From an uncultured Clostridia bacterium (GTDB lineage Bacteria; Bacillota; Clostridia; TANB77; CAG-508): a DNA stretch of 64,000 nucleotides. Under the pieces are notes generated by a model. It searched no databases and had not been told where the DNA came from. It worked only from the letters and a program-made list of their open reading frames with translations. The number at the start of each line of letters is the position of its first letter. Position 1 is the stretch's first letter. Positions 1 through 63,723 of this stretch are shown here, piece by piece. The stretch is from contig CANQAH010000001.1 of the NCBI GenBank assembly GCA_947588885.1, forward strand, positions 6,114-70,113. The letters run 5' to 3'. The position numbers and the translations under genes are program-made.

Positions 1-470
1 AAAAGAAGCAAGTATAGCAAGGCAAACGAATGAGTAAATCGAAAGAATACAAGAGTACAATCAAAAATAAATAAAAATTAGCCGTTCGAAAAAGAAACGA
101 GTATTACTAGGCAAAATTTAATTTTGAATACCGGAGTGTACGTGGTACATGAGGATTTTTGAAAAATAAAATATAATGAAATTTATCAAAAGCAAGTATT
201 GCTAGGCAAACGAATGAGTAAACCGAAAGAATACAAAAGTACAATCAAAAATAAATAAAAATTAGCCGTTCGAAAAAGAAACGAGTATTACTAGGCAAAA
301 TTTAATTTTAAACACCGAAGTGTACATGGTACATGAGGATTTTTGAAAAATAAAAAAATAATGAAATTTATCAAAAGCAAGTATTGCTAGGCAAACGAAT
401 GAGTAAACCGGAGGCGTACGAGGGTACGTTGAGGATTTACGAATGAAGTTTAACGACGCAAGACGCAGCT
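1..470 (-). repeat. Family A long-hairpin tandem repeat array. About 2.5 units of ~184 bp, each with two hairpin modules, in reverse-complement orientation relative to the arrays at 23.9 and 45.7 kb. Runs off the left edge.
   Basis: The unit starting aaaagcaagtattgctaggcaaacgaatgagtaaacc recurs at ~3, ~189 and ~373. The core accggagtgtac..gtacatgagga is the reverse complement of the cctca..gtac..ccggt core seen at 23.9 and 45.7 kb. Confidence 0.85.
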
Positions 471-3588: not shown

Positions 3589-3617
3589 ATAATAAGTAAA
3601 AGTAGTAATTAAGTAAA

Positions 3618-3685
3618 AAAGCTTCGCCACAAATCCACACAAAATTTCTAAATAAATTTTGGCGAGCGAATTTCCTATTGATAAA
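3618..3685 (+). repeat. Family B repeat, partial (M2 hairpin module plus a degenerate M1 half)
   Basis: gcttcgccacaaatccacacaaaatttctaaataaattttggcg matches the M2 module of the copies at 32090 and 49850. Confidence 0.7.
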
Positions 3686-5594: not shown

Positions 5595-6929
5595 ATGAAA
5601 AAAACAAAAATAATATCAATTATTTTTATAACATTAATGATTCTTTTTATAAATTGTGTATCATATGCAAAGTCTGCAAAAGTTACAACAGAAACATTGC
5701 GTATACGAGAGAAGCCAAGCACGGATTCTAAAATAGTGGATATGGCAAATCAAAATGATGATATAGAGGTTATCGGAGAAGAAGGAAGTTGGTACAAAGT
5801 ATCATATAATGGAAAAGAAGGATATGCATCAAAAGAATATATAGATGTAAAAGAAAGTGTAACTTCAAATACTACAGATAACACAAATACACAAGAAAAC
5901 AACATGGGAGATACTGAAAATACAAGTTCAGAGGAAAACACAATAGAACCTGAATCAGAAGAAACGCAAGAACTAATAAAGGATGTTGAAGAAGAATCTA
6001 CTACAAATGAAAAAATTGAAGGTCAATTAGGAAATAAAATTAATTCTAAAACATATGGATTTTTAATACCAAATTTATCTTCAACGAAACTAATAGAAAT
6101 AGAAAAAGATAAGCAAGTAGAAATAATAGAAACAATTTCTAATTGGTCAAAAGTAAAAGTAGAAAATAAAGAAGTATGGATTGCTAATGAATTTTTATAT
6201 GAAGTAATAACAGAAGAATCTACTGAAATACCTGAAGAAACTGAACCAGAAGAAGAACTACCAGCTGAAGATGAAGAAAAAGAAACTACAATAAATCAAG
6301 AAGGATATATATCAGCAAATGCCAGCGTTAATTTAAGAGAAGGGCCAAGCACTAATACGAAAAGTATAGATCAAATTGAAAAGAATACAGCTGTGACAGT
6401 AATATCAGAAATTGATGAATGGTATAAAATATCATACAATGGTAAAGAAGGATATGTATCAAAATCATTAATTACTTTAGGAAAAGCACCACAACCAACT
6501 TCTTCAAGATCTGCTGAAGAATCAAGAAATGACTTAAATGCAATGTCAAAGGGAACATCAATAGTAGAAACAGCAAGTTTATATTTAGGTGGAAAATATA
6601 AATCAGGAGGTTCGTCACCAACAACAGGTTTTGACTGTTCAGGATTTACACAATATATATATTCAATACATGGAATAACAATTCCAAGATCAGCGACGGC
6701 ACAATATAATGGTGGAACAAAAGTAAATAAATCAGATATGCAAATAGGTGATTTAGTATTCTTTTCTGATAATGCAGGAGGAAAATCAATATCACATGTT
6801 GGAATTTATATAGGAAATGGACAATTCATACATGCTGCAAATTCTAAAAGAGGAATTGTAACAAATTCACTAGATACTAATGATAATTATGGATACAATG
6901 AAAAATTCATAGGAGCAGTGAGATATTAA
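5595..6929 (+). CDS. Secreted cell-wall hydrolase: repeated SH3b-type domains, acidic linkers and a C-terminal NlpC/P60 (C40) endopeptidase
   Basis: Signal peptide. WYKVSYNGKEGYxSKEYI is repeated. The C-terminus has FDCSGFTQYIY (catalytic Cys) and ISHVGIYIGNGQFIHA (His). Confidence 0.85.
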   Translation: MKKTKIISIIFITLMILFINCVSYAKSAKVTTETLRIREKPSTDSKIVDMANQNDDIEVIGEEGSWYKVSYNGKEGYASKEYIDVKESVTSNTTDNTNTQENNMGDTENTSSEENTIEPESEETQELIKDVEEESTTNEKIEGQLGNKINSKTYGFLIPNLSSTKLIEIEKDKQVEIIETISNWSKVKVENKEVWIANEFLYEVITEESTEIPEETEPEEELPAEDEEKETTINQEGYISANASVNLREGPSTNTKSIDQIEKNTAVTVISEIDEWYKISYNGKEGYVSKSLITLGKAPQPTSSRSAEESRNDLNAMSKGTSIVETASLYLGGKYKSGGSSPTTGFDCSGFTQYIYSIHGITIPRSATAQYNGGTKVNKSDMQIGDLVFFSDNAGGKSISHVGIYIGNGQFIHAANSKRGIVTNSLDTNDNYGYNEKFIGAVRY

Positions 6930-6943
6930 TACAATTTTAAGAG

Positions 6944-9238
6944 GTGACAATAATAAATAAAATAATAATTGCCAATATGGGTTATATTATTGGTATAATA
7001 ATAGGGCTATACTTTAAAAAAGGTATAGCCGTTTTTTTATTTCTAATAATTCTATGTTATAAAATTTTAACAAAATTACATAAAACTAGAAGATACATAA
7101 AAATATTAATTCCTAAATTCACATTAATAATATTTTTAATTTCAATTTTTATATCATGTCAAATTACAATTTCATATGAAAATAAATTTAAAGAAAAACC
7201 AGAAAATATGACGCAATTAAATATTACATGTGTTGTAAAAAGTCAAGTAAAAGTAAAGGAACACTCAACTGAATTTATTGTAGAAGTAATTGATAAAAAA
7301 GATAAACTAAACAAAATGAAACTACTAGTAGATGATAATAATAAAATGCAAATACAATATGGAGATATACTAAAAATTTCAGGAAAATTTCAAGAAATAT
7401 CGAGCTACAAGAATCCAGGAGTATTTAATTATCAACAATCATTAAAAAAACAAAAAATAATTGGAAATATAAAAATACAAAAGATTGAGAAAATTGGTGA
7501 AAGCAATAATGTTTTAAAAATATTTTCTGATATAAATAAGAGAATAAAAAATAAAATAGAAAATAATTTTTCAGAAAATACATCATCTATTTTGAAAGCT
7601 ATTGTAATAGGTGATAAAGAAAATATTAATGAAGAAATACTGACAAACATACAAGATAATGGACTTTCACATATAATCGCAATATCTGGAATGCACATAA
7701 GTTGTATAGTACTAATAGTCAATGCAATTCTAAATAAATTTATAATAGATAATAGAAAAAAGAAAATAATTTTAATAATTTCATTAGTTATATTTATTTT
7801 CATAATAGGATTTATTGCATCAGCCGTTCGAGCTACAATAATGACAATTTTAATGATTCTATCAAAATTATTATTTAGAAAAAATAAATTTGAAATAGAT
7901 ATTTCAATAGCGAGTCTAGTTATATTAATTTATAATCCATATTATTTAATTGATGCTGGATTTTTATTATCATTTGGAGCAACAATTGGAATTATGCTAA
8001 TAATACCAAAACTAAGTAAAAATAACTTTAAAAATAAAGTAATTAAATATTGTATACAAACATTCCTTATAAGTGTATCAGTAAACATTTTTATTTTACC
8101 AATAACTATCATATTTTTTAAAAGAATTTCAATAACAGGAATAATAACAAGCGTATTAATTTCACCATTTGTTTTCATCATTGAATTTTTAGGAATAATA
8201 ACTATTTTTTTACCAACTAAATTTATATATTTAATAAAACCATTAGTAGAAGTAATAGTTACAACCTTCATAAAGATAACTCAAATAAATATTGGATCAT
8301 TCTACTTAAAAGTACCAACAATTTTGGAAATAATAGTGTATTATCTAATATTTATATGTATTTTAAATAAAAAGATAAAAAAATATTTTAAAATACCAAT
8401 TGCAACTGTAATTATAGCTATTTTAATTTCAAAAATAGACATTAAAAATGAGTTAAAAATATATTTTGTAGATGTAGAACAGGGAGATTGCACTTTAATC
8501 CAAACAGAAAATAATAAAACAATATTAATAGATGGAGGAGGAAACACTAATTCTGACATTGGAAAAAATGTACTAATTCCATATTTATTAAATAAAAAAA
8601 TAAATTATATAGATTATGTGATAATTTCACATTTTGATACAGATCATGTAGGAGGAATACTAACATTACTTGAAACATTCAAAACATCAAAAGTAATAAT
8701 AGGTAAACAATATGAAAACTCAGAAAATTTAGAAAATTTTATAAATATAATTAATAAGAAGAAAATTGAAACAATAATAGTAAAAAAAGGGGATAGAATA
8801 ACATTAGATGATGCTACATATTTAGATATATTATGGCCAGATGAAAAAAATATAATTACATCTAATTTAATGAATAACGAATCTTTAATATGTAAATTAA
8901 ATTATAATAACTTTTCTATGCTTTTTTCAGGAGATATTGAAAAAGAAGTTGAAGAAAAAATTATAAAAGACAAAAATGCTGTTCTTAAATCTGACATACT
9001 AAAAGTTGCTCATCATGGCTCAAAAACTTCATCAACACAAGAATTTATAAAAAAAGTTCAACCAAAAATTTCATTAATAGGAGTAGGACAAAATAATAAG
9101 TTTGGACATCCATCATATAGTACATTAGAAAATTTAAAAAAGATTGGAAGCATAATTTATAGAACAGATATTAATGGAGAAATAACAATTATGATTAATA
9201 AAAGTGGAAAAATCAAAATAAAAAAATATATAAACTGA
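6944..9238 (+). CDS. comEC: DNA internalization competence protein ComEC/Rec2 with a C-terminal metallo-beta-lactamase domain
   Basis: 764 aa polytopic. GLSHIIAISGMHI competence motif and the MBL motif ISHFDTDHVGG. The start is uncertain: GTG at 6944, or ATG at 6977. Confidence 0.85.
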   Translation: MTIINKIIIANMGYIIGIIIGLYFKKGIAVFLFLIILCYKILTKLHKTRRYIKILIPKFTLIIFLISIFISCQITISYENKFKEKPENMTQLNITCVVKSQVKVKEHSTEFIVEVIDKKDKLNKMKLLVDDNNKMQIQYGDILKISGKFQEISSYKNPGVFNYQQSLKKQKIIGNIKIQKIEKIGESNNVLKIFSDINKRIKNKIENNFSENTSSILKAIVIGDKENINEEILTNIQDNGLSHIIAISGMHISCIVLIVNAILNKFIIDNRKKKIILIISLVIFIFIIGFIASAVRATIMTILMILSKLLFRKNKFEIDISIASLVILIYNPYYLIDAGFLLSFGATIGIMLIIPKLSKNNFKNKVIKYCIQTFLISVSVNIFILPITIIFFKRISITGIITSVLISPFVFIIEFLGIITIFLPTKFIYLIKPLVEVIVTTFIKITQINIGSFYLKVPTILEIIVYYLIFICILNKKIKKYFKIPIATVIIAILISKIDIKNELKIYFVDVEQGDCTLIQTENNKTILIDGGGNTNSDIGKNVLIPYLLNKKINYIDYVIISHFDTDHVGGILTLLETFKTSKVIIGKQYENSENLENFINIINKKKIETIIVKKGDRITLDDATYLDILWPDEKNIITSNLMNNESLICKLNYNNFSMLFSGDIEKEVEEKIIKDKNAVLKSDILKVAHHGSKTSSTQEFIKKVQPKISLIGVGQNNKFGHPSYSTLENLKKIGSIIYRTDINGEITIMINKSGKIKIKKYIN

Positions 9239-10912: not shown

Positions 10913-10942
10913 ACTCCTCTATAAAAATAGAGGAGTTTTTTT
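10913..10942 (+). terminator. Intrinsic terminator after the dockerin-like gene
   Basis: Hairpin actcctcta-taaaaa-tagaggagt followed by a T-run. Confidence 0.75.
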
Positions 10943-11026
10943 CTTATAGGAATTTCCTATAAGAAAAAAGCATTCCAAAGAAAAATTGTATAACAATTTA
11001 TCGCGGACGAACAAAGACGCGGACTT
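10941..11026 (+). repeat. Family B repeat, truncated (M1, M2 and the left arm of M3 only)
   Basis: ttcttataggaatttcctataagaa, then ccaaagaaaaattgtataacaattt, then gaacaaagacgcggac. The right arm gtccgc is missing. Confidence 0.75.
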
Positions 11027-11040
11027 AAAAATATCTTAAT

Positions 11041-11069
11041 TTGTATGGTAGCAAAAAGTATGCTATAAT
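11041..11069 (+). promoter_or_regulatory. Sigma-A-type promoter of the receiver cassette
   Basis: TTGTAT-N17-TATAAT with TG immediately upstream of the -10. Confidence 0.55.
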
Positions 11070-11124: not shown

Positions 11125-11508
11125 ATGAGGATTTTAATTATAGAGGACGGACTAGAGAAAATCATTGCGATAAAAAGAGTTATGCTTGAAATGGGAATAC
11201 AAGATTATAAAATTGCGAAAAATAAAGAAGATGCGCAGGAAATATATATGTCTGATTATAAAATTGATATAGTAATATTGGACATGAAATTCCCAGAAAA
11301 AGCAAATTCTTCCAAAGAATGTAGCGGCATGGAAATGTTAAACCAGATAGAAGAAGATTATCGAAAAGCGCACTATACACCACCTAAGGTAATAATTTAT
11401 TCATTACTGTTATTGGAAAAAGTGTATAAAGAGCATATTCCGAAATCTTTTGCTGGGCAAGCTATAACCGCGGGGGGAGTAAAGGACCTTTTAAAACAAT
11501 TGATTTAA
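11125..11508 (+). CDS. Stand-alone CheY-like receiver domain protein (orphan)
   Basis: MRILIIEDG ... IDIVILDMKFP (putative phospho-acceptor Asp) ... KVIIYS. GGGGG RBS 8 nt upstream of the ATG at 11125. The upstream part of the tracked ORF lies in repeat DNA. Confidence 0.6.
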   Translation: MRILIIEDGLEKIIAIKRVMLEMGIQDYKIAKNKEDAQEIYMSDYKIDIVILDMKFPEKANSSKECSGMEMLNQIEEDYRKAHYTPPKVIIYSLLLLEKVYKEHIPKSFAGQAITAGGVKDLLKQLI

Positions 11509-11513
11509 CAAGA

Positions 11514-11531
11514 GGGGCGATATGTCGCCCC
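11514..11531 (+). terminator. GC-rich hairpin after the receiver gene
   Basis: ggggcga-tatg-tcgcccc. The U-tail is weak. Confidence 0.45.
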
Positions 11532-11595
11532 ATTTCCTATTATATAAAGGTATCGCCCAAATTGCATACAAATTTTTTTTAACAAAATAAATTTA
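11531..11595 (+). repeat. Family B repeat fragment (right half of M1 plus M2)
   Basis: catttcctattatataaaggtatcgcccaaattgcatacaaatttttttt aacaaaa matches the B consensus starting in mid-M1. Confidence 0.7.
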
Positions 11596-11673
11596 AGAAA
11601 TATGATTAATTAAAATTTATAATGAATAAAAAACATATAAATACAAATACTACCAATAGAAGGTGGGATTTGT

Positions 11674-16987: not shown

Positions 16988-17145
16988 AAGAACAATAGCG
17001 GACATTTTTATATATCACACTATTTAATTTCATTGCAAAGTCCGCGTCAATTGTTCGCCCGCCAAAATTTCTTTAGAAATTTTGTGTGGATTTGTGGTGA
17101 AGCTTTTATATTATAGGAAAGTTCTTTGAACTTTCCTATAATATA
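16988..17145 (-). repeat. Family B repeat, complete copy, minus orientation (downstream of the minus-strand gene 17177..17554)
   Basis: Read on the minus strand, the order is M1 (tatattataggaaagttcaaagaactttcctataatata), M2 (ccacacaaaatttctaaagaaattttggcgg), M3 (gaacaattgacgcggac ... gtccgctattgttc). Confidence 0.85.
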
Positions 17146-17176
17146 AAAAAGGGGAAGTTTTAAAACTTCCTCTTTT

Positions 17177-17554
17177 TTACATGCTTTGTTCACCAGGTAA
17201 GATGTAGTCAATTATACCATAAATTAAAGCACCAATTATTGCTGACATCCATGAAATTGTATAACCTGCAACAAAGAATTGTGTTGCATACAAAATTACC
17301 ACGGCTAAAACAAATCCTACAAAGCCTTTACCAAATGCCATTGCTTGTAAACCAGTAAATTTTACTATTATATAATCCATTACTGTTAAGACAATAGCAG
17401 CAAGGCCTAATGCCCATATGTTGTCAATTCTAAAACCAGGAGTAAAAAATGCAGTAACTCCAAGGATTATAGCTGATGCTATAAGTCTTCCAATAATTTG
17501 ACCGACAACACCCATTGTGGAAGAGCTTTGTATATTAGAATTGTTATTATCCAT
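17177..17554 (-). CDS. Small 4-TM membrane protein, phage-holin-family-4-like (YvlD/PF04020-like)
   Basis: 125 aa with four hydrophobic helices. AGGAGG RBS. The family assignment is from memory of the PF04020 pattern. Confidence 0.45.
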   Translation of the reverse strand: MDNNNSNIQSSSTMGVVGQIIGRLIASAIILGVTAFFTPGFRIDNIWALGLAAIVLTVMDYIIVKFTGLQAMAFGKGFVGFVLAVVILYATQFFVAGYTISWMSAIIGALIYGIIDYILPGEQSM

Positions 17555-17853
17555 TTTGAACCTCCTTTTTTAAATTAATTTGTTCATTAATCTAAAAATT
17601 TCAATTACCACTTTGAATAAAAACTTATTATAAATAGAAAAATTTAATTTTCTATTTTATAAATAAGCCATACAAAATTTTTTAAAATTTTGATGGAGAA
17701 CAACAAGAATGAATTTAGAATAAATTTAATTTTTAAAATTTCAAAAATTCTATTGTTGTTCTTTTATATTTTTTACGAAAAAAATTTTTTTATGCATATT
17801 ATTTTAATTTCAGTAAAAAATAAATATAAAATTCAAAAAATGAGGTTGTTGAT

Positions 17854-20107: not shown

Positions 20108-20117
20108 ATTTTGAAAC

Positions 20118-20167
20118 AAAGCTTTTATGTAATGGGAAAGCTTCAAGAACATTCCTATTATATAAAT
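20118..20167 (-). repeat. Family B fragment (M1 module only), minus orientation
   Basis: aaagcttttatgtaatgggaaagcttcaagaacattcctattatataaa parallels 17095-17145. Confidence 0.55.
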
Positions 20168-23871: not shown

Positions 23872-24285
23872 TTGAAAAAATAATCATCATTCTACGTCGT
23901 TAAATTGCAATCAAAAATCCTCAACGTACTTGTGTACGCCTCCGGTATTTTGATTACAATTTGCCTAGTACAATAATAATTATTTTTTCAACGGCGAAAG
24001 AGTTGAAGAAATGATTTTTTTTCCGACAAGACTAAGCTTGAAAATAATCATCATTCTAGGTTGCTAAATTATAATTAAAATTCTCAACGTACTTGTGTAC
24101 GCTTCCGGTATTTTGATTGTAATTTGCCTAGTATATTAATGATTCTTTTTCCAACTAGTGGGCTTGAAAAAATAATCATCATTCTACGTCGTTAAATTAC
24201 AATCAAAAATCCTCAACGTACTTGTGTACGCTTCCGGTATTTTGATTGCAATTTGCCTAGTATAATAATAATTCTTTTTTCAAGC
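23872..24285 (+). repeat. Family A long-hairpin tandem array (3 units, spacing 166 and 126 bp) lying between the T-box terminator and the aspS2 start
   Basis: Units start with ttgaaaaaataatcatcattcta at 23872, 24038 and 24164. Each has an inner stem aaattgcaatcaaaaat / attttgattgcaattt around the core cctcaacgtacttgtgtacgc(c/t)tccggt, followed by tttgcctagta. Confidence 0.9.
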
Positions 24286-27658: not shown

Positions 27659-27920
27659 TGTGTATTATAAAGAATTCAAATATTATTTATTTGGATTCTT
27701 TTTTTTACTCTGTCTTTTGCACATAATAAATATATTTTTTTTTCCTTGTGGTAACACTTCAAACAAGTTTTTATATTCTAAGAGTTACAAGCAATAAAAA
27801 AGAAGGAAATTTTAGGGTGATAAACTATAAATATTACACAAAGTAAGAATGATTTTTTTCTGACGCGAAGCGACCAAACGAAACGAAGTGTAGTGCGATT
27901 ACGAGCAACTCTTCAGACTA

Positions 27921-28083
27921 GCCTTTATATAATAGAAAAGTGCTACGCATTTTCTATTATATAAAGGCTTCGCTCAAATTGCACACAAATTTTTTAACAA
28001 AAATTTGGCGCATAGAACAAAAATGCGGACAATTTAGAATAATTTTTCCTTTTGCAGATTATATATTGTCCGCTTTTGTTCTT
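27921..28083 (+). repeat. Family B repeat, complete copy, nested inside a larger inverted repeat (27837-27860 / 28111-28133)
   Basis: M1 gcctttatataatagaaaagtgctacgcattttctattatataaaggc. M2 cacacaaattttttaacaaaaatttggcg. M3 gaacaaaaatgcggac...gtccgcttttgttc. Confidence 0.88.
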
Positions 28084-28299
28084 AATCTGAGAGTTGCGAC
28101 CCACAAGGAAGAAAAAAATATTCTTACTTTGTGTAAACATATATTATTAAAAAAATTATAATGAAAAATGCTTTGAAAAAATAGCGACAAAACTAGATAA
28201 ATCAATATTTGTAGACGCTATAAAAAACTATTGAAAGCTAAAAATATTTGTGATAGAATAACGTCGGTCGAATAAATTACAATAATATAGGAGGTAATT

Positions 28300-30068: not shown

Positions 30069-30225
30069 TTTTATATAAATAGGAAAGTTCTACGAATTTC
30101 TTATAATATAAAGACTTCGCCAAATTTGTACACAAATTTTTTAACAAAAATTTGGCACATAGAACAAAGACGCGGACAATTCAGGATATTTTTTTCTTTT
30201 GCTGATTATATATTGTCCGCTAATA
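30069..30225 (+). repeat. Family B repeat, complete copy
   Basis: tatataaataggaaagttctacgaatttcttataatataaag, then acacaaattttttaacaaaaatttggc, then gaacaaagacgcggac...gtccgc. Confidence 0.88.
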
Positions 30226-30281
30226 TTCACTGTAAATTAGCATTTATACTAATTTACAGTGAATATTTCTGTTAACATAAA

Positions 30282-30310
30282 TTGACTAATTTATATAAAA
30301 AGGGTATAAT
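30282..30310 (+). promoter_or_regulatory. Near-consensus sigma-A promoter of cassette A
   Basis: TTGACT-N17-TATAAT. The leader is ~89% identical over ~55 nt to the one at 31236-31290. Confidence 0.7.
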
Positions 30311-30342
30311 AGATAAACTACTATTTATAAGGAGGCAAAATT

Positions 30343-30801
30343 GTGGATAAATTTGGTTATTACCGGTATCGTCAAATGCTACAGCAATATGGCTTTGTAT
30401 GTTTCCCGACTAGAAAAGATTTGATCGAATTTTTTTCTATTCATGTATCGAATCTGTACCGGGATTGGATTAACAAGCAGGCATCGCGTGAAAGAGATAC
30501 TGAGCGCATACGCAAATGGGTTTCGCGGGAACTTTCTGAAGGAATTCTAGTAGAAGTGTATGTGAAAGAGTTCTTGGAACAGCATGTTGTACATCAAGAG
30601 GATGTACTGTATCGTATGTTGCCGAGGGTCATGAAAAGGATGCCTAACATGTTTAAGATGTACGTCGATCAGGAAAATAAGGAATTATATGAATTTGTCC
30701 TGAAGAGAATTGCCAAAGGCGATAATGCGGCAGATGTGTTTCCGGAAAATGTGAAATATCTTATCGAAGGAAATTGCAAGTTATCCGTAAGCACAACGTA
30801 A
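30343..30801 (+). CDS. Unknown-family 152-aa protein, paralog A of the GC-rich triplet
   Basis: GTG start 7 nt after AAGGAGG. 459 nt. Visibly higher GC with CCG/CGG/GCG codons. Shares YYRY, DLIEF, EFLE.HVVH..D.LYR, P.MFK, GD.AADVFP and IEG..KL with 31343..31801. Confidence 0.8.
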   Translation: MDKFGYYRYRQMLQQYGFVCFPTRKDLIEFFSIHVSNLYRDWINKQASRERDTERIRKWVSRELSEGILVEVYVKEFLEQHVVHQEDVLYRMLPRVMKRMPNMFKMYVDQENKELYEFVLKRIAKGDNAADVFPENVKYLIEGNCKLSVSTT

Positions 30802-30852: not shown

Positions 30853-31235
30853 ATAACTTCAAAGTAATCCACCAGCTATGCTGGGGAGTTGGAAAACTTA
30901 TAGTTTTGCACAAGATAAAAAATCCCACTCAAACATGATATAATATTTTAAGTTTGACGGCTTAAATATAAAATCATGAAAGGAGTGGTACGTATGAAAA
31001 GCCCATACATAAATATTTTAGCACACACAACATGGGAATGCAAGCATCATATAGTATTTGCACCAAAATTTAGAAGAAAAGAAATATATAGAACAATAAA
31101 AGTAGTAAGAGAAAAAAACGCAAGCGAAATAGTTGTAAGCTGTCAAACTGGGACGCTTAAGTGTCAGCAGTATCAAGGCCGTATAGAACAATATGAAAAT
31201 CTTCTACTTACTGGGATAATTATAGAATAGATAAG
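30853..31235 (+). mobile_element. IS200/IS605-family remnant (internally deleted)
   Basis: Subterminal hairpin ccaccagc-tat-gctgggg at ~30868-30886, plus a truncated tnpA reading frame. Confidence 0.55.
30994..31230 (+). pseudogene. tnpA: Truncated IS200-type Y1 transposase (tnpA). Only the first ~37 residues are recognisable.
   Basis: MKSPYINILAHTTWECKHHIVFAPKFRRKEIY matches the IS200 TnpA N-terminus (LAHTKWNCKYHIVFAPKYRR). The HUH motif and catalytic Tyr regions are absent, and the remaining frame is unrelated. Confidence 0.65.
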
Positions 31236-31279
31236 TAGCATTTATGCTACTTTACAGTAAATATACCAGTTAACATAAA

Positions 31280-31308
31280 TTGACTAATTTTTTTAAAAAA
31301 GATATAAT
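31280..31308 (+). promoter_or_regulatory. Near-consensus sigma-A promoter of cassette B
   Basis: TTGACT-N17-TATAAT. Confidence 0.7.
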
Positions 31309-31342
31309 AAAAGTATACTATTATTTATAAGGAGGTAAAAAT

Positions 31343-31801
31343 ATGAAAAGAAGCGATTATTATCGGTATTGCTCAACACTACGGGTCTCTGGAACTGTAG
31401 TTTTTCCGCACAGAAAGGACCTGATTGAATTTTTGTCTATGCACGTGTCGAAGCTTTATCAGGATTGGACGAATGATCAGATGTCTCTTGAAAGCGATCC
31501 GGCGATTAAGCGCGAATGGGCTGTACGTGAATGTACGGAGGGCAGACTAGCTGAGATTTATTCAAGTGAATTTCTGGAAGAGCATGTCGTGCATGAGAAT
31601 GATGCCTTGTATCGGTTGTCAACCAAAGCATTAAAGAGGGTACCGAAGATGTTTAAGGTTTTCATTGATATGAAGGATCATAAAGATTTATACGAATCAG
31701 TTCTAAGACGGATTGCCCAGGGCGATAAGGCTGCGGATGTGTTCCCGGATACCGAATATGTCATCGAAGGATTCAACAAACTTGTTGAAGTAAGTCCGTA
31801 A
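31343..31801 (+). CDS. Unknown-family 152-aa protein, paralog B of the GC-rich triplet
   Basis: ATG after AAGGAGG. 459 nt. Roughly 50-55% aa identity to paralog A by eye. The start lies exactly 1000 bp after the paralog A start. Confidence 0.8.
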   Translation: MKRSDYYRYCSTLRVSGTVVFPHRKDLIEFLSMHVSKLYQDWTNDQMSLESDPAIKREWAVRECTEGRLAEIYSSEFLEEHVVHENDALYRLSTKALKRVPKMFKVFIDMKDHKDLYESVLRRIAQGDKAADVFPDTEYVIEGFNKLVEVSP

Positions 31802-31837: not shown

Positions 31838-31868
31838 GGGACGCGCCAGAAATGGCGCGTTTCTTTTT
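31838..31868 (+). terminator. Intrinsic terminator of cassette B
   Basis: acgcgcca-gaaa-tggcgcgt followed by ttcttttt. It runs directly into the right half of a family B M3 module. Confidence 0.8.
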
Positions 31869-32212
31869 GTAGATTACATATTGTCTGCTATTGTTATATC
31901 ATAGGAAAGTGCTCCGCATTTTCTATTATATAAAGGCTTCGCCCCAATTGCACACAAATTTTTTAACAAAAATTTGGCGCTTAGAACAAAGACGCGGACA
32001 ATTCAGGATAATTTTTTCTTTTGCAGACTATATATTGTCCGCTATTGTTATATGATAGGAAAGTGCTCTGCATTTCTTATTATATAAAGGCTTCGCTACA
32101 AATCCACACAAAATTTCTAAAGAAATTTTGGCGGGCGAACAATTGACGCGGACTAAAAAAGGTTCTAAGTAGTAAAAATATTAATAATGTCCGCTATTGT
32201 TCTTAAAAAACT
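31869..32212 (+). repeat. Family B repeats: a partial M3 right arm plus two complete tandem copies
   Basis: gtagattacatattgtctgctattgtt, then two M1-M2-M3 units carrying the two alternative M2 variants (aaattttttaacaaaaattt and aaaatttctaaagaaatttt). Confidence 0.9.
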
Positions 32213-32798: not shown

Positions 32799-32799
32799 C

Positions 32800-32853
32800 G
32801 ATATTATAGAAAGTTCAGAGAACTTTCTATAATATAAAAGCTTTGTTTCAAAC
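32800..32853 (+). repeat. Family B fragment (M1 plus the start of M2)
   Basis: atattatagaaagttcagagaactttctataatataaaagctttg. Confidence 0.65.
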
Positions 32854-42726: not shown

Positions 42727-42969
42727 TGTAGTACCTCCTTATAAATTAGTGTTATATAAGTATAACATAAATTTACATAATATTCAAATAGGAATTCTTT
42801 GAAAAAATATAAAGTAAAATTTGATAAAAAAATGTAAATAAAAAGAAATAAATTATAGAATCCCAATATTTCAATATGAAAAGGTTAAGAAAGAAAATAG
42901 ATAATTGAAAATAAATTTTATTATTATTACAATAAAATTGTAAAATTTTGTATTTAATATAGGTGTAAT

Positions 42970-44496
42970 ATGAAAAGAATAGTAAGAATATTTATATTTA
43001 TGTTAATTTTTATCTATGCATTTGTATTTTCTACAGTAAGTGCAGCAACTCCTAAAATGCAAGTTGTAAAAAAGATAGCATCAACAAATTTGAAAGATGG
43101 ATATGGCAAAATTACAAAAGAAATAACCTCATCAAATGAAACAACTGGTGAAATCAATATAAAAGTTACTATAGATAATACGAAAAAAAGTAGTGAACAA
43201 GAAAAAAGATATGAAAATACAGAAATTTTTTTAATTGTTCCAGAAGAAATAGTTTGTGAAAATGGTAATTTAAATGAGTATACTTCATATATTGAAACAT
43301 TGACTAAAAAGATATTAGAAAGAAATAGCAAAGTTAAAATTGGTGTTATTGGCTTACAAGGAAGATTATCTGATTCAAAAATTGTAGATGGAAAACGTAT
43401 AAAAGGAGAAAAGGATGAAGGAGATAAAGTTGGAACAGAAAATGATTCAGAAGTAGTAATTTCTCCAACAGATAATGTAGAGAGTCTAATATCAGCAATA
43501 AAAAATATGAATGGAGAAAAGAAAAGATATTATTATAATTTAGAAGCAGCGTTGAAAATTGCTGCAAATAGTTATTCTGACAATGTAAACAAAATACTTA
43601 TTTCACTTTATGATAATGTTCCTAAAATTGCTGTTGGAGTTAAATCAGAAGTAACGGTTTCTCAATATCAAACTACTGAAGAAGTTGTTATAGCAAAGCA
43701 TGAGAAAATAGTAAAGCAAACTAAAAGTGCAATGCTAGCATTAAAAGATAAAAATATTAGTTTTATATTATTAAGACCTGCTGATACTAGTTTCGATCAA
43801 AAATGGTATAAGGTAGATACAGGGGAATTAGTACTAGAATTTGATGGTAGTCCATATGTTAAAGATCTTTATGGAACATTAGAAAATCCTACTTATGGAA
43901 AAATGTATAGTTTATCAAATGATACTTTAGAAACGGTAATTACTGAAAATATTTATGAGGATATAATTGAAGAAGTTGGTACTGAAATTACGGATGTAGT
44001 AGTAAAGGATTATTTTTTGGATATTATAAAAGATAATGCAACAATTACCCTATCGTCAAATAACAAAGATGCAGTAATAAATGAAGATAAATCGATTACG
44101 GCAAATTTAGGAAATATAGAAGGAAATTCTAAAAAAACACTGGAATATACAATAAAATTAAATGATATAAATGATCCTAATTTACTAGACAAAGAAATTT
44201 TAACAAATGAAAAAATTGAAGTTACATATAAAGAAAATCAACAAGAGAAAAAAGTGCTTTTAGAAGATAGTCCATCTGTAAAAATATCGGCAGAAGAAGT
44301 AAAACCAAGTGCTAGTCCTAAAAACGATAATGGAGATGATAAAGGAAGTGATACTAAAAAAGAAGTAGATAATACGGTATCACCTGAAAAATTACCATAT
44401 GCAGGAAAAAATGAAGTTATAATTATGATTGTATTTACTGCAGGAATTGGAATTATATTTTGGACAAAACTTATTAAAATAAGAGATGTAAAATAA
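42970..44496 (+). CDS. Cell-surface protein with a C-terminal LPxAG-type sorting signal
   Basis: Signal peptide. The C-terminus has LPYAG, a hydrophobic stretch VIIMIVFTAGIGIIFW and a basic tail KLIKIRDVK. The central region may be a degenerate vWA-like fold (no clear MIDAS motif). Confidence 0.55.
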   Translation: MKRIVRIFIFMLIFIYAFVFSTVSAATPKMQVVKKIASTNLKDGYGKITKEITSSNETTGEINIKVTIDNTKKSSEQEKRYENTEIFLIVPEEIVCENGNLNEYTSYIETLTKKILERNSKVKIGVIGLQGRLSDSKIVDGKRIKGEKDEGDKVGTENDSEVVISPTDNVESLISAIKNMNGEKKRYYYNLEAALKIAANSYSDNVNKILISLYDNVPKIAVGVKSEVTVSQYQTTEEVVIAKHEKIVKQTKSAMLALKDKNISFILLRPADTSFDQKWYKVDTGELVLEFDGSPYVKDLYGTLENPTYGKMYSLSNDTLETVITENIYEDIIEEVGTEITDVVVKDYFLDIIKDNATITLSSNNKDAVINEDKSITANLGNIEGNSKKTLEYTIKLNDINDPNLLDKEILTNEKIEVTYKENQQEKKVLLEDSPSVKISAEEVKPSASPKNDNGDDKGSDTKKEVDNTVSPEKLPYAGKNEVIIMIVFTAGIGIIFWTKLIKIRDVK

Positions 44497-44500
44497 TAAA

Positions 44501-44544
44501 AATAAACCCGTTTTACCTTTTTGATAAAACGGGTTTATTTTTGT
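44501..44544 (+). terminator. Intrinsic terminator
   Basis: aaataaacccgtttta-ccttttt-gataaaacgggtttattt followed by ttg. Confidence 0.8.
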
Positions 44545-44699
44545 TATTATGAGTAATAATTAATATGGCATATAATAAAATAGAATTGCCTAAAGTTTAG
44601 GTATTTCTTTTATATAATTTACTTGTAAAATTGGCTTAAATACAGTATAATTAACAATAGTTTTAATGAGAGAGTATAATAAAATTAAGGAGAAGATTT

Positions 44700-45715: not shown

Positions 45716-46220
45716 TTCGAAAAATAAACTTCGTCTTACGTCGTTAAAATTTAATTTTGAAATCCTCATGTATCTATATACACTCCGGTGTTCAAAATTA
45801 AATTTTGCCTAGTAATACTCGTTTCTTTTCCGAAGTTAAAAATATGAAAAATAAACTTCGTATTGCAGTGTTAAAAATAAATTTTAAATTTACATGTATC
45901 TATATACACTCCGGTGTTCAAAATTAAATTTTGCCTAGTAATACTCGTTTCTTTTTCGAAGTTAAAAAATATGAGAAATAAACTTTGTATTGCAGTGCTA
46001 AAAATGAATTTTGAATTTATATGTATCTACATACACTCCGGTGTTCAAAATTAAATTTTGCCTAGTAATACTCGTTTCTTTTCCGAAGTTAAAAAATATG
46101 AGAAATAAACTTTGTATTGCAGTGCTAAAAATGAATTTTGAATTTATATGTATCTACATACATTCCGGTGTTCAAAATTAAATTTTGCCTAGTAATACTT
46201 GTTTCTTTTCCGAAGCTTCG
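45716..46220 (+). repeat. Family A long-hairpin tandem array (4 units, ~126-129 bp spacing)
   Basis: Units start at 45716, 45845, 45971 and 46098. Inner stem aaatttaattttgaa / ttcaaaattaaattt. Core cctcatgtatctatatacactccggtg. Then tttgcctagtaatactcgtttcttttccgaag. Confidence 0.92.
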
Positions 46221-47567: not shown

Positions 47568-47633
47568 TTAAATCAAAATGTATAATATTAAATGTGACTT
47601 ATTTGAAAATATACCAAATTTGGTGATTAAAAT

Positions 47634-47980
47634 AAAAACGCGGACTTAAAAAGATTTTAAGTTCGCGTTTTTGTTATATTATAGGAAAGTTCTCCGAATT
47701 TCCTATAATATAAAGGCTTCGCCAAACTTGTACACAAATTTTTTAACAAAAATTTGGCACATAGAACAAAGACGCGGACTTTAAAATGTTATAAATAGTG
47801 AAAATGTTAATAATGTCCGCTTTTGTTATATTATAGGAAAGTTCTCCGAATTTCCTATAATATAAAGGCTTCGCCAAACTTGCACACAAATTTTTTAACA
47901 AAAATTTGGCACATAGAACAAAGACGCGGACTTTAAAATGTTATAAATAGTGAAAATGCTAATAATGTCCGCTTTTGTTC
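47634..47980 (+). repeat. Family B repeats: a short M3-like hairpin plus two nearly identical complete tandem copies
   Basis: The units at 47673-47826 and 47826-47980 are almost identical. Each has M1 tatattataggaaagttctccgaatttcctataatata, M2 acacaaattttttaacaaaaatttggc, M3 gaacaaagacgcggac...gtccgcttttgtt. Confidence 0.92.
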
Positions 47981-49802: not shown

Positions 49803-49961
49803 TTTTATATAATAGGAAAGTGCTCTGCATTTCATATTATATAAAGGCTTTGCTACAAATCCACACAAAATTTCTAAAGAAATTTTGGCGGGCGAACAAT
49901 TGACGCGGACAATCCAGGATGATTTTTCTTTTGGCAGATTACATATTGTCCGCTATTGTTC
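49803..49961 (+). repeat. Family B repeat, complete copy
   Basis: M1 tatataataggaaagtgctctgcatttcatattatata. M2 ccacacaaaatttctaaagaaattttggcgg. M3 gaacaattgacgcggac...gtccgctattgttc. Confidence 0.9.
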
Positions 49962-55901: not shown

Positions 55902-56837
55902 ATGGAAAATACGAATATAGTAAATGGAGGACAACAACGCCCTGTTCAGCAGTTTCAACAGGGACAACCAATGCAAAGAGTTCAAACTGGTGCAATTAAT
56001 AATGTACAAAGGGTTCAACAAGGAATACAACAAGCAAATGTAGCACAGCCAAGAATGACCAACCAAGGAAATATTGGAGTAAATAGAGGGGGACAAGGAC
56101 AATATTCACAAGTTAGCGGTTTTGCAAAAAATGGTGTTAATGGAATACAAGGACAACCACCAACTCAATATAGAGTACAACCTCAAATGAATAATCAATT
56201 TAATAATCCTCAAAATGTAATTCAGAATAGAACGGGAAATATTAATCAAGTTAGAAAAACTGGAGTATTCAACGGAGTAGAAAATAAAATGCCACAAGGT
56301 GGACAATATTCACAAGTAAGTGGTTTTGTTGGAACTAATTCTAACATGGTACAAAATAAAATGCAAAATGGTGCTCAAGTTTCTACTCAACAAAGTAATA
56401 TAAAGCCAAATACAGGAAATACAGCTGGAACTACGGAAAATAAGACTACAAATCAATTTTTTACTAAATTATTTTCTCCTACACAACCACAGCAAACCCA
56501 ACAACAAACGCCAAAACCACAATTGCAACAACAGCCACAACAAATGTCAGGATATACTGGTGGATATGTAGAACAACCTTCTGAAAAAGTTCTAAGAATA
56601 GGAATTAACAATGATGAAACTGCAACAGCTAATTTACCAGCTGTAAAAGTTGGATTCTTAAAAAAGGTTAAAGAATTTTTACTACCTTCAACTTGGACTT
56701 TGCCAGAAATAAGAATTAATGTATCTGAAAAAGAAGAAAAAGTTCTTTGCGAAGTTCATGATTTTCTATTCCAGGAAGTATCATTAAAGGGCTTTTTAAA
56801 TCTATTGAATTTCGGAAAAAATAAAAATAATGGTTAA
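55902..56837 (+). CDS. Q/N-rich low-complexity protein with a short structured C-terminal segment
   Basis: About 230 aa dominated by Q, N and G, with the repeat GGQ(G)QYSQVSGF appearing twice. The C-terminal ~90 aa has ordinary composition. Confidence 0.55.
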   Translation: MENTNIVNGGQQRPVQQFQQGQPMQRVQTGAINNVQRVQQGIQQANVAQPRMTNQGNIGVNRGGQGQYSQVSGFAKNGVNGIQGQPPTQYRVQPQMNNQFNNPQNVIQNRTGNINQVRKTGVFNGVENKMPQGGQYSQVSGFVGTNSNMVQNKMQNGAQVSTQQSNIKPNTGNTAGTTENKTTNQFFTKLFSPTQPQQTQQQTPKPQLQQQPQQMSGYTGGYVEQPSEKVLRIGINNDETATANLPAVKVGFLKKVKEFLLPSTWTLPEIRINVSEKEEKVLCEVHDFLFQEVSLKGFLNLLNFGKNKNNG

Positions 56838-56876: not shown

Positions 56877-57075
56877 TTATATTATAGGAAAGTTCTCCGA
56901 ATTTCCTATAATATAAGGCATTCCACAGAAAAATTGTTATACAATTTTTCGCAGGCGAACAAAGACGCGAACTTGGCAATAAATTTATATAGTATGACAT
57001 ATAAAAATGTTCGCTATTGTTCTATAATAGGAAAGTGCTCCGCATTTCCTATTATATAAAGGTTTTGCTTCAAAT
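56877..57075 (+). repeat. Family B repeat: one complete copy plus an extra M1 module
   Basis: tatattataggaaagttctccgaatttcctataatata, ccacagaaaaattgttatacaatttttcgc, gaacaaagacgcgaac...gttcgctattgttc, then ataataggaaagtgctccgcatttcctattatataaagg. Confidence 0.88.
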
Positions 57076-57237
57076 TAAATATGATAAATAAAAAATTTTT
57101 ATAAATAATGAATAGAGTAAAAACCCTTAGGGAAAAATATAATTTAAGTATTGCAATTATTAATGTTTTGATATAAAATAAGCATGGTTAAAAGTGACCA
57201 AATTTGAAATGATGTTAAAATCAGAAGGAGGATTTAT

Positions 57238-58304: not shown

Positions 58305-58341
58305 TTTATATAATAGAAAGCAATATTTTACTATTATATAA
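58305..58341 (+). repeat. Family B M1-like hairpin only
   Basis: ttatataatagaaagcaatattttactattatataa, directly after the gap terminator (58271-58301). Confidence 0.5.
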
Positions 58342-63545: not shown

Positions 63546-63555
63546 AGGTTCTTTT

Positions 63556-63596
63556 TTTATATAATAGGAAAGCTTCACTAAATTTGCACACAAATT
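63556..63596 (+). repeat. Family B fragment (fused M1 half and M2 start)
   Basis: tttatataataggaaagcttcactaaatttgcacacaaatt. Confidence 0.55.
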
Positions 63597-63723
63597 ATTT
63601 TTATAAAAATTTATAGAAATAATATTTGTTGTTCATTTTTATTATAATAATTAAAATTTTGAATAAAAAACAAATTTTAATTTCTATGTATGTAAATCTC
63701 TTATTTGTAAATAATAAAAATGA

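Follow-up and report, generated by a model that had tools for sequence, protein, structure and literature searches.

Immediately downstream of the obg gene of an uncultured Clostridia bacterium, a structured repeat stands twice in tandem and reads in the direction of the gene, which raises the question whether such a repeat works in the transcript of the gene that it follows or has moved into place from elsewhere. The initial annotation of this DNA had assigned the locus (47634-47980) to a recurrent repeat family, Family B, and its description was right, as the obg hairpin and its T-run are followed here by two full units. We studied the family in a 64-kb stretch of this genome (hereafter the window), which has a GC content of 27%, and at loci of other genomes, which carry L numbers below. 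Copies were found to begin, with a fixed polarity, at the T-tracts of host transcription terminators, a preference that is unusual, well supported and new relative to the earlier observation of co-orientation with the upstream gene. On balance we favour a reading of Family B as a mobile element of the non-autonomous kind, which seeks out, with polarity, the T-tract that follows a terminator hairpin and is moved by a trans-acting enzyme.

Conserved hairpins behind host terminators

A unit of Family B is about 145-157 bp long and is composed of four hairpins in the order M1, a small 3-bp hairpin, M2 and M3 (Table 1). The modular hairpin build proposed in the initial annotation is real, and the GGC-TTC-GCC hairpin between M1 and M2 has been added to it as a fourth module. 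The 5' end of M1 reads (TT)ATATWATAGG, and the M1 pattern ATAGGAAAGTKCTNYGMATTTYNTATWATATAA occurred eight times in the window and not once in 100 shuffles. As read from the alignment, the small hairpin is GCC-TTC-GGC in the subfamily of a sheep metagenome-assembled genome (MAG) and is deleted in others; one subfamily has GCCUUCGGC, which is similar to a UUCG loop. M3 is a stem with a TTTTGTT tail, and its loop of 30-37 nt exceeds what the terminator scan accepts. It is the sole terminator-like structure after the stop codon in L009, L051, L054 and L057, where a partial copy lies directly 3' of the stop.

Changes in the stems were frequently compensated. For 39 proposed pairs, compared among 32 full copies that came from the window and from 23 loci elsewhere, 97.1% of the cells formed standard pairs, compared with 87.6% in shuffled controls and 45-58% in slid registers; 14 of the 39 pairs were changed on both sides, compared with 8.8 after shuffling, and the covariation score was 0.222, compared with 0.071 (shuffled) and 0.02-0.04 (slid). 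The covariation claimed at the outset thus holds against controls that are far lower. The inner 3-bp helix of M1 alternates between TTC/GAA and TGC/GCA (pair 18-24: UA 20, GC 11), M2 shows C:G to G:C exchange at its base and several distinct inner stems, and the inner stem of M3 alternates between CGCGGAC/GTCCGC and CGGGGCA/TGCCCC, CGAGGCA/TGCCTC or CGTGGCA/TGCCAC. The fold z-score of one unit was -5.5 as RNA and -6.3 as DNA. The stems showed no wobble bias, with 9 G:T and 15 A:C combinations among 1774 paired cells of 48 distinct copies. Selection on RNA would normally tolerate G:U, so the absence of a G:U excess gives RNA-level selection no support; the pattern fits a demand for full complementarity such as DNA hairpins would make, and it is probably at the DNA level that the hairpins are read.

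The 5' end of M1 adjoins the T-tract of a hairpin that differs from locus to locus. Flanks were counted as terminator-like when a hairpin had a folding free energy (dG) of -8 kcal/mol or lower and its helix ended no more than 10 nt upstream of the junction, and such a strong, locus-specific hairpin was present at 35 of 59 non-tandem 5' junctions. Two sets of T-run ends served as controls: those of intergenic runs of four or more T were terminator-like in 10.7% (p = 1.5e-19), and those of sense-strand runs within 150 nt downstream of stop codons in 21% (p = 2.5e-10). The distance from the last G/C of the host stem to the ATAT of M1 is 5-8 nt, which places the junction inside or at the end of the T-tract. 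A T-run stands at the 5' end of nearly all copies, and 31 of the 59 flanks end in TTTTTT. Several 3' flanks begin with a T-run (L010, L021, L025, L028), which suggests insertion inside the T-tract. The hairpins before M1 belong to the host, as shown by the plain terminators that follow the same genes in element-free relatives. Among the 24 junctions without such a hairpin, six represent one orthologous locus that was sampled six times, and several others have flanks derived from M3. Tandem units start directly after the M3 T-tract of the preceding unit (47674/47826, 31894/32048, 56877/57023 and three units in L020); as M3 is a hairpin followed by TTTTGTT(C), a copy of the site that the element prefers is present in the element itself.

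An ordinary small transposable element that targets T-runs alone, with purifying selection sparing the harmless zone behind terminators, would account for the T-run that ends nearly all flanks and for the insertions that lack a hairpin, such as those in L007, L020, L010 and L031. A similar enrichment downstream of coding sequences is known for pneumococcal repeats and was ascribed to tolerance of insertion there (PMC3049150). However, only 21% of the T-run ends in the tolerated zone are terminator tails, compared with 59% of the junctions, and the spacing between hairpin foot and element varies little (5-8 nt). We therefore consider targeting of T-runs alone improbable.

Co-orientation with an upstream gene was observed at 15 of 16 loci in the window and at 48 of 56 non-redundant loci overall, the remaining eight being without it. 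The strong co-orientation reported in the initial annotation was thus borne out, and only the word "always" has to be given up: the window contains one exception in a divergent spacer (17628-17761), and in L007 and L020 the exceptional copies are flanked by a ribosome-binding site and start codon in antisense. In convergent spacers a copy follows whichever terminator it adjoins, on either strand (17146 and 20165 on the minus strand; L028 compared with the window), which rules out a replication-strand bias as the cause of orientation. The orientation would arise from the landing site, a T-tract that follows a hairpin on the strand in question.

The exceptional copy in L007 (~6033-6060; the same locus as in L048, L050, L052, L053 and L055) stands upstream of an opposite-strand gene, 23 nt from its start codon, and the TATAAT within its M1 palindrome could, judged from its sequence, serve as a -10 box of that gene. 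A scan for a promoter inside the element gave just weak 9-of-12 matches that did not exceed those in shuffles.

The window was inventoried with a profile built from nine of its copies and then with a covariance model, R1, that was run with filters off. It contains nine full and about nine partial copies at 16 loci, which make up ~3% of its length (roughly 2.2 kb of 64 kb; Table 1). The nine full copies scored 128-170 bits with R1, the diverged copy at 17628-17761 excluded. The partial copies starting at 3609, 10939, 32799, 57023 and 63555 are clear, and those at 11501, 20117 (minus strand) and 58306 are weak. Each locus listed in the initial annotation holds something, with mere degenerate solo M1 modules at 20118 (minus strand) and 58305 and an M2 fragment at 3618; the diverged full copy at 17628-17761 (plus strand) had been absent from that list. 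The tandem at 47674-47980 has a period of 152 according to Tandem Repeats Finder (TRF), with unit lengths of 152-155 nt. Copies in the window are mutually 60-91% identical and form mosaics of M2 and M3-loop variants, whereas those of the sheep MAG are 92-96% identical to each other and point to recent activity; most of the window copies are older.

Table 1 Modules of the second obg unit and copies of Family B in the window. R1, covariance model; TRF, Tandem Repeats Finder.
Feature	Positions	Strand	Structure or support
M1	47826-47865	+	15-bp AT-rich palindrome TTATATTATAGGAAA / TTTCCTATAATATAA with inner 3-bp helix
Small hairpin between M1 and M2	47867-47875	+	GGC-TTC-GCC
M2 hairpin	47881-47911	+	7 of 11 pairs changed on both sides
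M3	47916-47980	+	Outer stem GAACAAA/TTTGTTC, inner stem GCGGAC/GTCCGC, variable loop of 30-37 nt, T-tract at end
Host terminator of obg, not part of the unit	47632-47673	+	20-pair stem with a loop of 3, followed by TTTTTGTT
Full copy 1 (M1, small hairpin, M2, M3)	47674-47825	+	R1 160.7 bits; nhmmer
Full copy 2, 98% identical to copy 1, starting directly after TTTTGTT of the M3 of copy 1	47826-47980	+	R1 169.7 bits
Full copy behind terminator of minus-strand holin-like gene (17177-17554)	16990-17146	-	R1 150.5 bits; flank hairpin
Full copy nested in loop of another long palindromic element (arms 27834-27858 and 28112-28136)	27925-28081	+	R1
Full copy behind terminator of GGGtGRT gene	30071-30228	+	R1; flank hairpin
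M3 3' fragment (31860-31893), then two full copies (31894-32047, 32048-32202)	31860-32202	+	R1; TRF
Full copy right of bidirectional terminator of lexA and 777-aa gene	49805-49961	+	R1
Full copy (56877-57022), then partial M1 and linker (57023-57101)	56877-57101	+	R1
Variant copy: short M1 (CTTATAGGAATTTCCTATAAG), M2, M3 5' arm	10939-11066	+	R1 59.5 bits
Linker and M2 fragment	3609-3674	+	R1 35.2 bits
Partial copy (M1 3' arm, linker, M2 start) fused to terminator hairpin	11501-11608	+	Clear by nhmmer, weak by R1
Solo M1 behind terminator	32799-32851	+	Profile, R1, flank hairpin
Partial copy (half M1, linker, M2 start) behind T-run	63555-63611	+	Profile search
Degenerate solo M1 behind terminator of Band_7 gene	20117-20165	-	Weak match
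Degenerate solo M1 behind GAPDH terminator	58306-58341	+	Weak match
Diverged AT-rich full copy in divergent spacer, 5' side without terminator or T-run	17628-17761	+	R1 42.3 bits, all 154 model positions aligned

The 5' arm of the obg terminator, ACGCGGACTTAAAA, is similar to an M3 arm. The stem of M3 was also observed in host terminators without an element: the Band_7 terminator of L045 (~160-190, minus strand) is AAGCGGACTTAGGTCCGCTTTT, and the obg terminator of L028 (4590-4620, an element-free site) has CGGAT...ATCCGC. An ordinary terminator of the lineage may thus have given rise to M3.

Beyond the window, an exact scan with one genome per species gave 37 loci, all in MAGs of uncultured gut Clostridia from rabbit, sheep jejunum and human gut, and 12 further loci came from metagenomes; 78 copies were recorded at ~60 non-homologous loci (the window and roughly 15 gut Clostridia MAGs). 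As all 37 hits fell in such MAGs, Fusobacterium, a host suggested at first by the GC content of 27%, was rejected. Many contigs end within a copy, as a high-copy repeat would predict, and Family B thus breaks the assemblies of these uncultured gut bacteria. It may also supply spare terminators, adds possible recombination sites between genes, and could mislead the prediction of small RNAs and terminators. The Rfam search that had been proposed gave no match to the element at the gathering threshold, the best sub-threshold scores being at most 26 bits and far under the cut-offs; with nothing meaningful in a permissive scan either, a known RNA family was ruled out. An origin from phages or plasmids was likewise ruled out, with no matches in viral contigs, phage records or plasmids, and the core sequences of Family B were found in none of the papers searched. 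Some copies adjoin tRNA genes in the same orientation, namely between two tRNA genes in L031 (2347-2727) and after a tRNA gene and its terminator hairpin in L037 (6427-6675). In L010 (5519-5744), two copies stand head to head and converge on a common central hairpin (GTGGGCTGA...TCAGCCCAC) in the place of M3.

Orthologous sites and the proposed movement of the element

Comparison of orthologous sites showed that relatives lack the element at some of them. L028 is ~85% identical to the window and syntenic with its 41-51 kb, and its obg site is empty, with a plain terminator, where the window has two copies. The bidirectional terminator of lexA and the 777-aa gene is kept in both; the window has a plus-strand copy to the right of the hairpin and L028 a minus-strand copy to its left, each with M1 against the T-run of its own strand; these are separate insertion events at the one terminator that both have in common. 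L044 and L045 are syntenic with the window at 20-47 kb, and in these two, L039 and L040, plain terminators were found after greA, the GGGtGRT gene, obg and the Band_7 gene. No copy of Family B was found among L039-L047 (~140 kb).

Family B might be a 3' untranslated RNA part of the upstream gene, such as a stabiliser, a processing site or a back-up terminator or insulator, whose function sets its orientation, and the initial annotation had taken co-orientation to argue for such an RNA-level role over a mobile element. Besides the strong co-orientation, this explanation is favoured by the covariation of the conserved hairpins, the very stable RNA fold, and the terminator-like M3, which would be the only terminator of the gene in L009, L051, L054 and L057. 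However, most copies lie behind an intact, locus-specific host terminator, so that transcription would be expected by read-through only; the stems have no G:U excess, the same genes in relatives do without the element, exceptional copies lie in opposite-strand 5' regions and divergent spacers, and Rfam has no match. Together with the independent insertions at a shared terminator, these observations leave the earlier inference without support, and we regard an RNA-level function as unlikely.

Units were also gained or lost between strains. A single 147-nt unit sets L057 apart from L009 and L051; it lies between two direct M1 arms, with flanks that are 99-100% identical. The difference reflects recombination between the arms and not transposition, and shows that modules recombine to remove or add units and to make solo-M1 forms. 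The contig of L054 (10428-10469), otherwise identical to those of L051 and L057, parts from them completely at the end of an M1 module, so that either the genome was rearranged at the repeat or the assembly is chimeric.

In an explanation without any enzyme, replication stalled at a hairpin and T-tract switches template to another T-tract preceding a copy, copies through the M3 T-tract and then switches back, or an equivalent ectopic recombination takes place. The T-tracts at both ends of the unit (3' flanks of L010, L021, L025 and L028 included), the gain and loss of whole units between short direct repeats and the failure to find a transposase in the window and loci are in keeping with such a process. 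However, compensatory conservation of three to four hairpins across divergent genomes is hard to explain without a reader, and a microhomology of a few T residues is too unspecific for ~60 precise junctions, which makes spread without an enzyme very unlikely.

A mobilising enzyme was sought in ~0.6 Mb of DNA in total. No copy containing an open reading frame (ORF) with M1 and M3 apart was found; for the DNA covered, an autonomous parent was ruled out, as the solo M1 copies are followed by ordinary genes. Homologues of Y1_Tnp were absent from the window and from the 59 loci except L039 itself. The ORF at 55902-56837 in the window, just upstream of a copy, was considered because it lies upstream of GAPDH, a position held in L039 by the Y1 transposase gene; it has no Pfam hit and showed no similarity, and was rejected.

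The Y1_Tnp gene of L039, which comes from a close relative, resembles those of the transposases associated with repetitive extragenic palindromic (REP) sequences, known as RAYTs. It encodes ~260 aa, is single-copy and syntenic, and is located downstream of a Glyco_hydro_15 gene (L039 1-900; L060, L061 and L064 ~5800-7000) and directly upstream of GAPDH in L039, L060 and L064-L067. Inverted REP hairpins stand on either side of the gene (GGTTAATYGGGACAGGTCCCRATTAACC; REP sequence GGTTAATYGGGACAGGTCCC...) in a classic REP/RAYT arrangement, which is unrelated to Family B, and this REP is absent from the window.

Under the interpretation that Family B is a mobile element moved in trans, a copy would insert in one fixed orientation, within the T-tract that follows an intrinsic-terminator hairpin or where that tract ends, and the insertion would leave its M1 end 5-8 nt from the foot of the host hairpin. 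M3, a hairpin followed by TTTTGTTC, may then serve as a spare terminator and would re-create the preferred target, such that new units could stack into tandem arrays, from which module recombination would later yield solo-M1 and other partial forms. The trans-acting enzyme would probably read hairpins on single-stranded DNA, and the host hairpin itself, beyond the T-run, would be recognised. If this is true, Family B is a clear case of safe-haven targeting, so far documented mainly for group IIC introns, and points to an enzyme that reads terminator structures. We put forward only tentatively the more specific proposal of a tiny non-intron element that recognises hairpin and T-tract as a structure and whose terminator-like module regenerates its own target. 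Such recognition would imply a mobilisation machinery of a kind not yet described; candidates are a DNA transposon that finds its sites as group IIC introns do and a mechanism tied to the termination of transcription or to stalled replication.

Several observations weigh against this interpretation. The window and the loci yielded no transposase, no reverse transcriptase and no autonomous parent, and the RAYT was rejected as the mobiliser: its gene is single-copy and syntenic and has a different REP of its own on either side, with no Family B there. Neither was there a clean pair of filled and empty sites at >95% identity that shows de novo insertion, and the sole strain-level polymorphism found (L057 compared with L009 and L051) is explained by recombination between repeated arms. 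A hairpin is missing at about 30-40% of the junctions, and the T-run may be the sole strict requirement, with selection adding the rest. Moreover, most window copies are old, and the analysis covered only 64 kb of this genome and pieces of 4-21 kb of the others.

Comparison with known systems

The loose analogy to BOX-type modular repeats drawn in the initial annotation is a fair one. BOX elements (boxA-boxB(n)-boxC) and Family B are both small, intergenic and non-coding, with stable folds and with modules that may be absent or repeated (PMC3049150). In BOX, boxA pairs with boxC to form ends like terminal inverted repeats, whereas each module of Family B folds on itself and such repeats are absent. 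The hosts are unrelated, Streptococcus for BOX and uncultured Clostridia for Family B. The likeness is architectural only, and precise placement behind host terminators is a feature of Family B that is undescribed for BOX. SPRITE elements share with Family B a terminator-like hairpin with a T-rich tract and an enrichment near the 3' ends of coding sequences, most of all where these converge (PMC3049150), but SPRITE is a single long hairpin that may replace the terminator, whereas Family B has three further hairpins, a fixed polarity and a position mostly behind an existing terminator.

In siting, Family B resembles group IIC introns, which, in the passage of PMC8643678 that cites Robart et al. 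2007, are located in sense orientation downstream of intrinsic-terminator hairpins, where the DNA stem-loop is recognised. Family B is sited in the same way, in sense and just after an intrinsic terminator (35 of 59 junctions, compared with 11-21% of controls). The introns, which measure at least 600 nt, are ribozymes and usually carry a gene for a reverse transcriptase, whereas Family B has ~150 nt and no ribozyme signature; Rfam group II intron models gave no match at the gathering threshold in the window and 18 loci, and none at E-values up to 10 on the element. An RNA intermediate similar to a group IIC intron or a short interspersed nuclear element (SINE), served in trans by a reverse transcriptase that would recognise the stem-loops of terminators or the 3' ends at which transcripts terminate, would share the site and polarity described for these introns (PMC8643678) and could draw on the UUCG-loop-like GCCUUCGGC of one subfamily, but is highly unlikely in view of the missing ribozyme domains and group II intron matches (window, 18 loci), the truncated copies that retain the 5' end and lose the 3' end, opposite to the outcome of incomplete reverse transcription, and the missing G:U excess.

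A looser resemblance is to the IS1272 / IS1182-family insertion sequences (TnSha1), which also target terminator hairpins, with little primary-sequence specificity and no target duplication (PMC4923244). IS1272 cuts within the stem and inserts in both orientations (PMC4923244); it deletes part of the stem and is autonomous, with inverted repeats. Family B, in contrast, is polar and leaves the hairpin intact.

REP sequences and bacterial interspersed mosaic elements (BIMEs), with their RAYTs, and the palindrome-associated elements derived from IS200/IS605 are hairpin-based and extragenic, without terminal inverted repeats or target duplications, and insert with polarity beside a short motif. 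Family B is similar to the IS200/IS605-derived elements in its polar insertion 3' of a short motif (the T-run) and in its lack of terminal inverted repeats, and a reading of single-stranded DNA hairpins would fit its perfect Watson-Crick pairing. REPs and the ends of IS200/IS605 have similar hairpins at both ends together with a specific tetra- or pentanucleotide, whereas M1 is unlike M3 in sequence, in the length of the stem and in the loop, and the three modules M1, M2 and M3 are mutually unrelated. No Y1 transposase was found next to Family B. The bcr1 repeat of the Bacillus cereus group is another structured intergenic repeat of Firmicutes, of ~155 bp, with a T-rich insertion site and a reported TTTAT duplication. 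No duplication was seen in Family B, and to our knowledge terminator adjacency is not a described feature of bcr1.

A classic MITE (miniature transposable element with inverted repeats) with target-site duplications, the identification that the initial annotation had named as contrary to its own reading, was not matched. Terminal inverted repeats were not found, as TTATATWATAGG at the 5' end does not complement GCTWTTGTTC(T) at the 3' end and all inverted repeats lie within single modules; the flanks have no repeat longer than T residues, and an all-T duplication inside a T-tract would escape view. Family B does not fit the definitions of classic MITEs, of REP/RAYT systems, of IS200/IS605 ends and of group II introns. 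REP, BOX, enterobacterial repetitive intergenic consensus (ERIC) and Correia repeats are common, and their choice of sites is mostly unexplained.

Other repeats and variable segments of the window

A second repeat family, which is unrelated to Family B, forms tandem arrays at 6-410 (184 nt x 2.2), 24041-24283 (129 nt x 1.9) and 45722-46215 (127 nt x 3.9). The arrays have a common motif like TTGCCTAGTAATACTCGTTTC in both orientations and no Rfam match. The array at 45.7-46.2 kb is located just upstream of obg, and overlapping alignments suggest that L028 has fewer repeats there.

The long palindromic element around the Family B copy at 27925-28081 extends over 27716-28137, with outer arms TTACACAAAGTAAGAAT / ATTCTTACTTTGTGTAA and inner arms GCAACTCTTCAGA / TCTGAGAGTTGC. 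The spacer between greA and the next gene measures 642 nt in the window and 135 nt in L044. A segment of ~1.8 kb (42789-44616) with a 508-aa ORF (42970-44496, no Pfam hit) is missing in the syntenic L028, where the flanks join at 1884/1892. A promoter-like stretch (TTGACT ... TATAAT) is duplicated at 30235-30311 and 31233-31309 with 86% identity, and its two copies precede two ORFs of 152 aa (30343-30801 and 31343-31801), which have no Pfam hit; the whole block at 30.3-35.5 kb is absent from L044 and L045.

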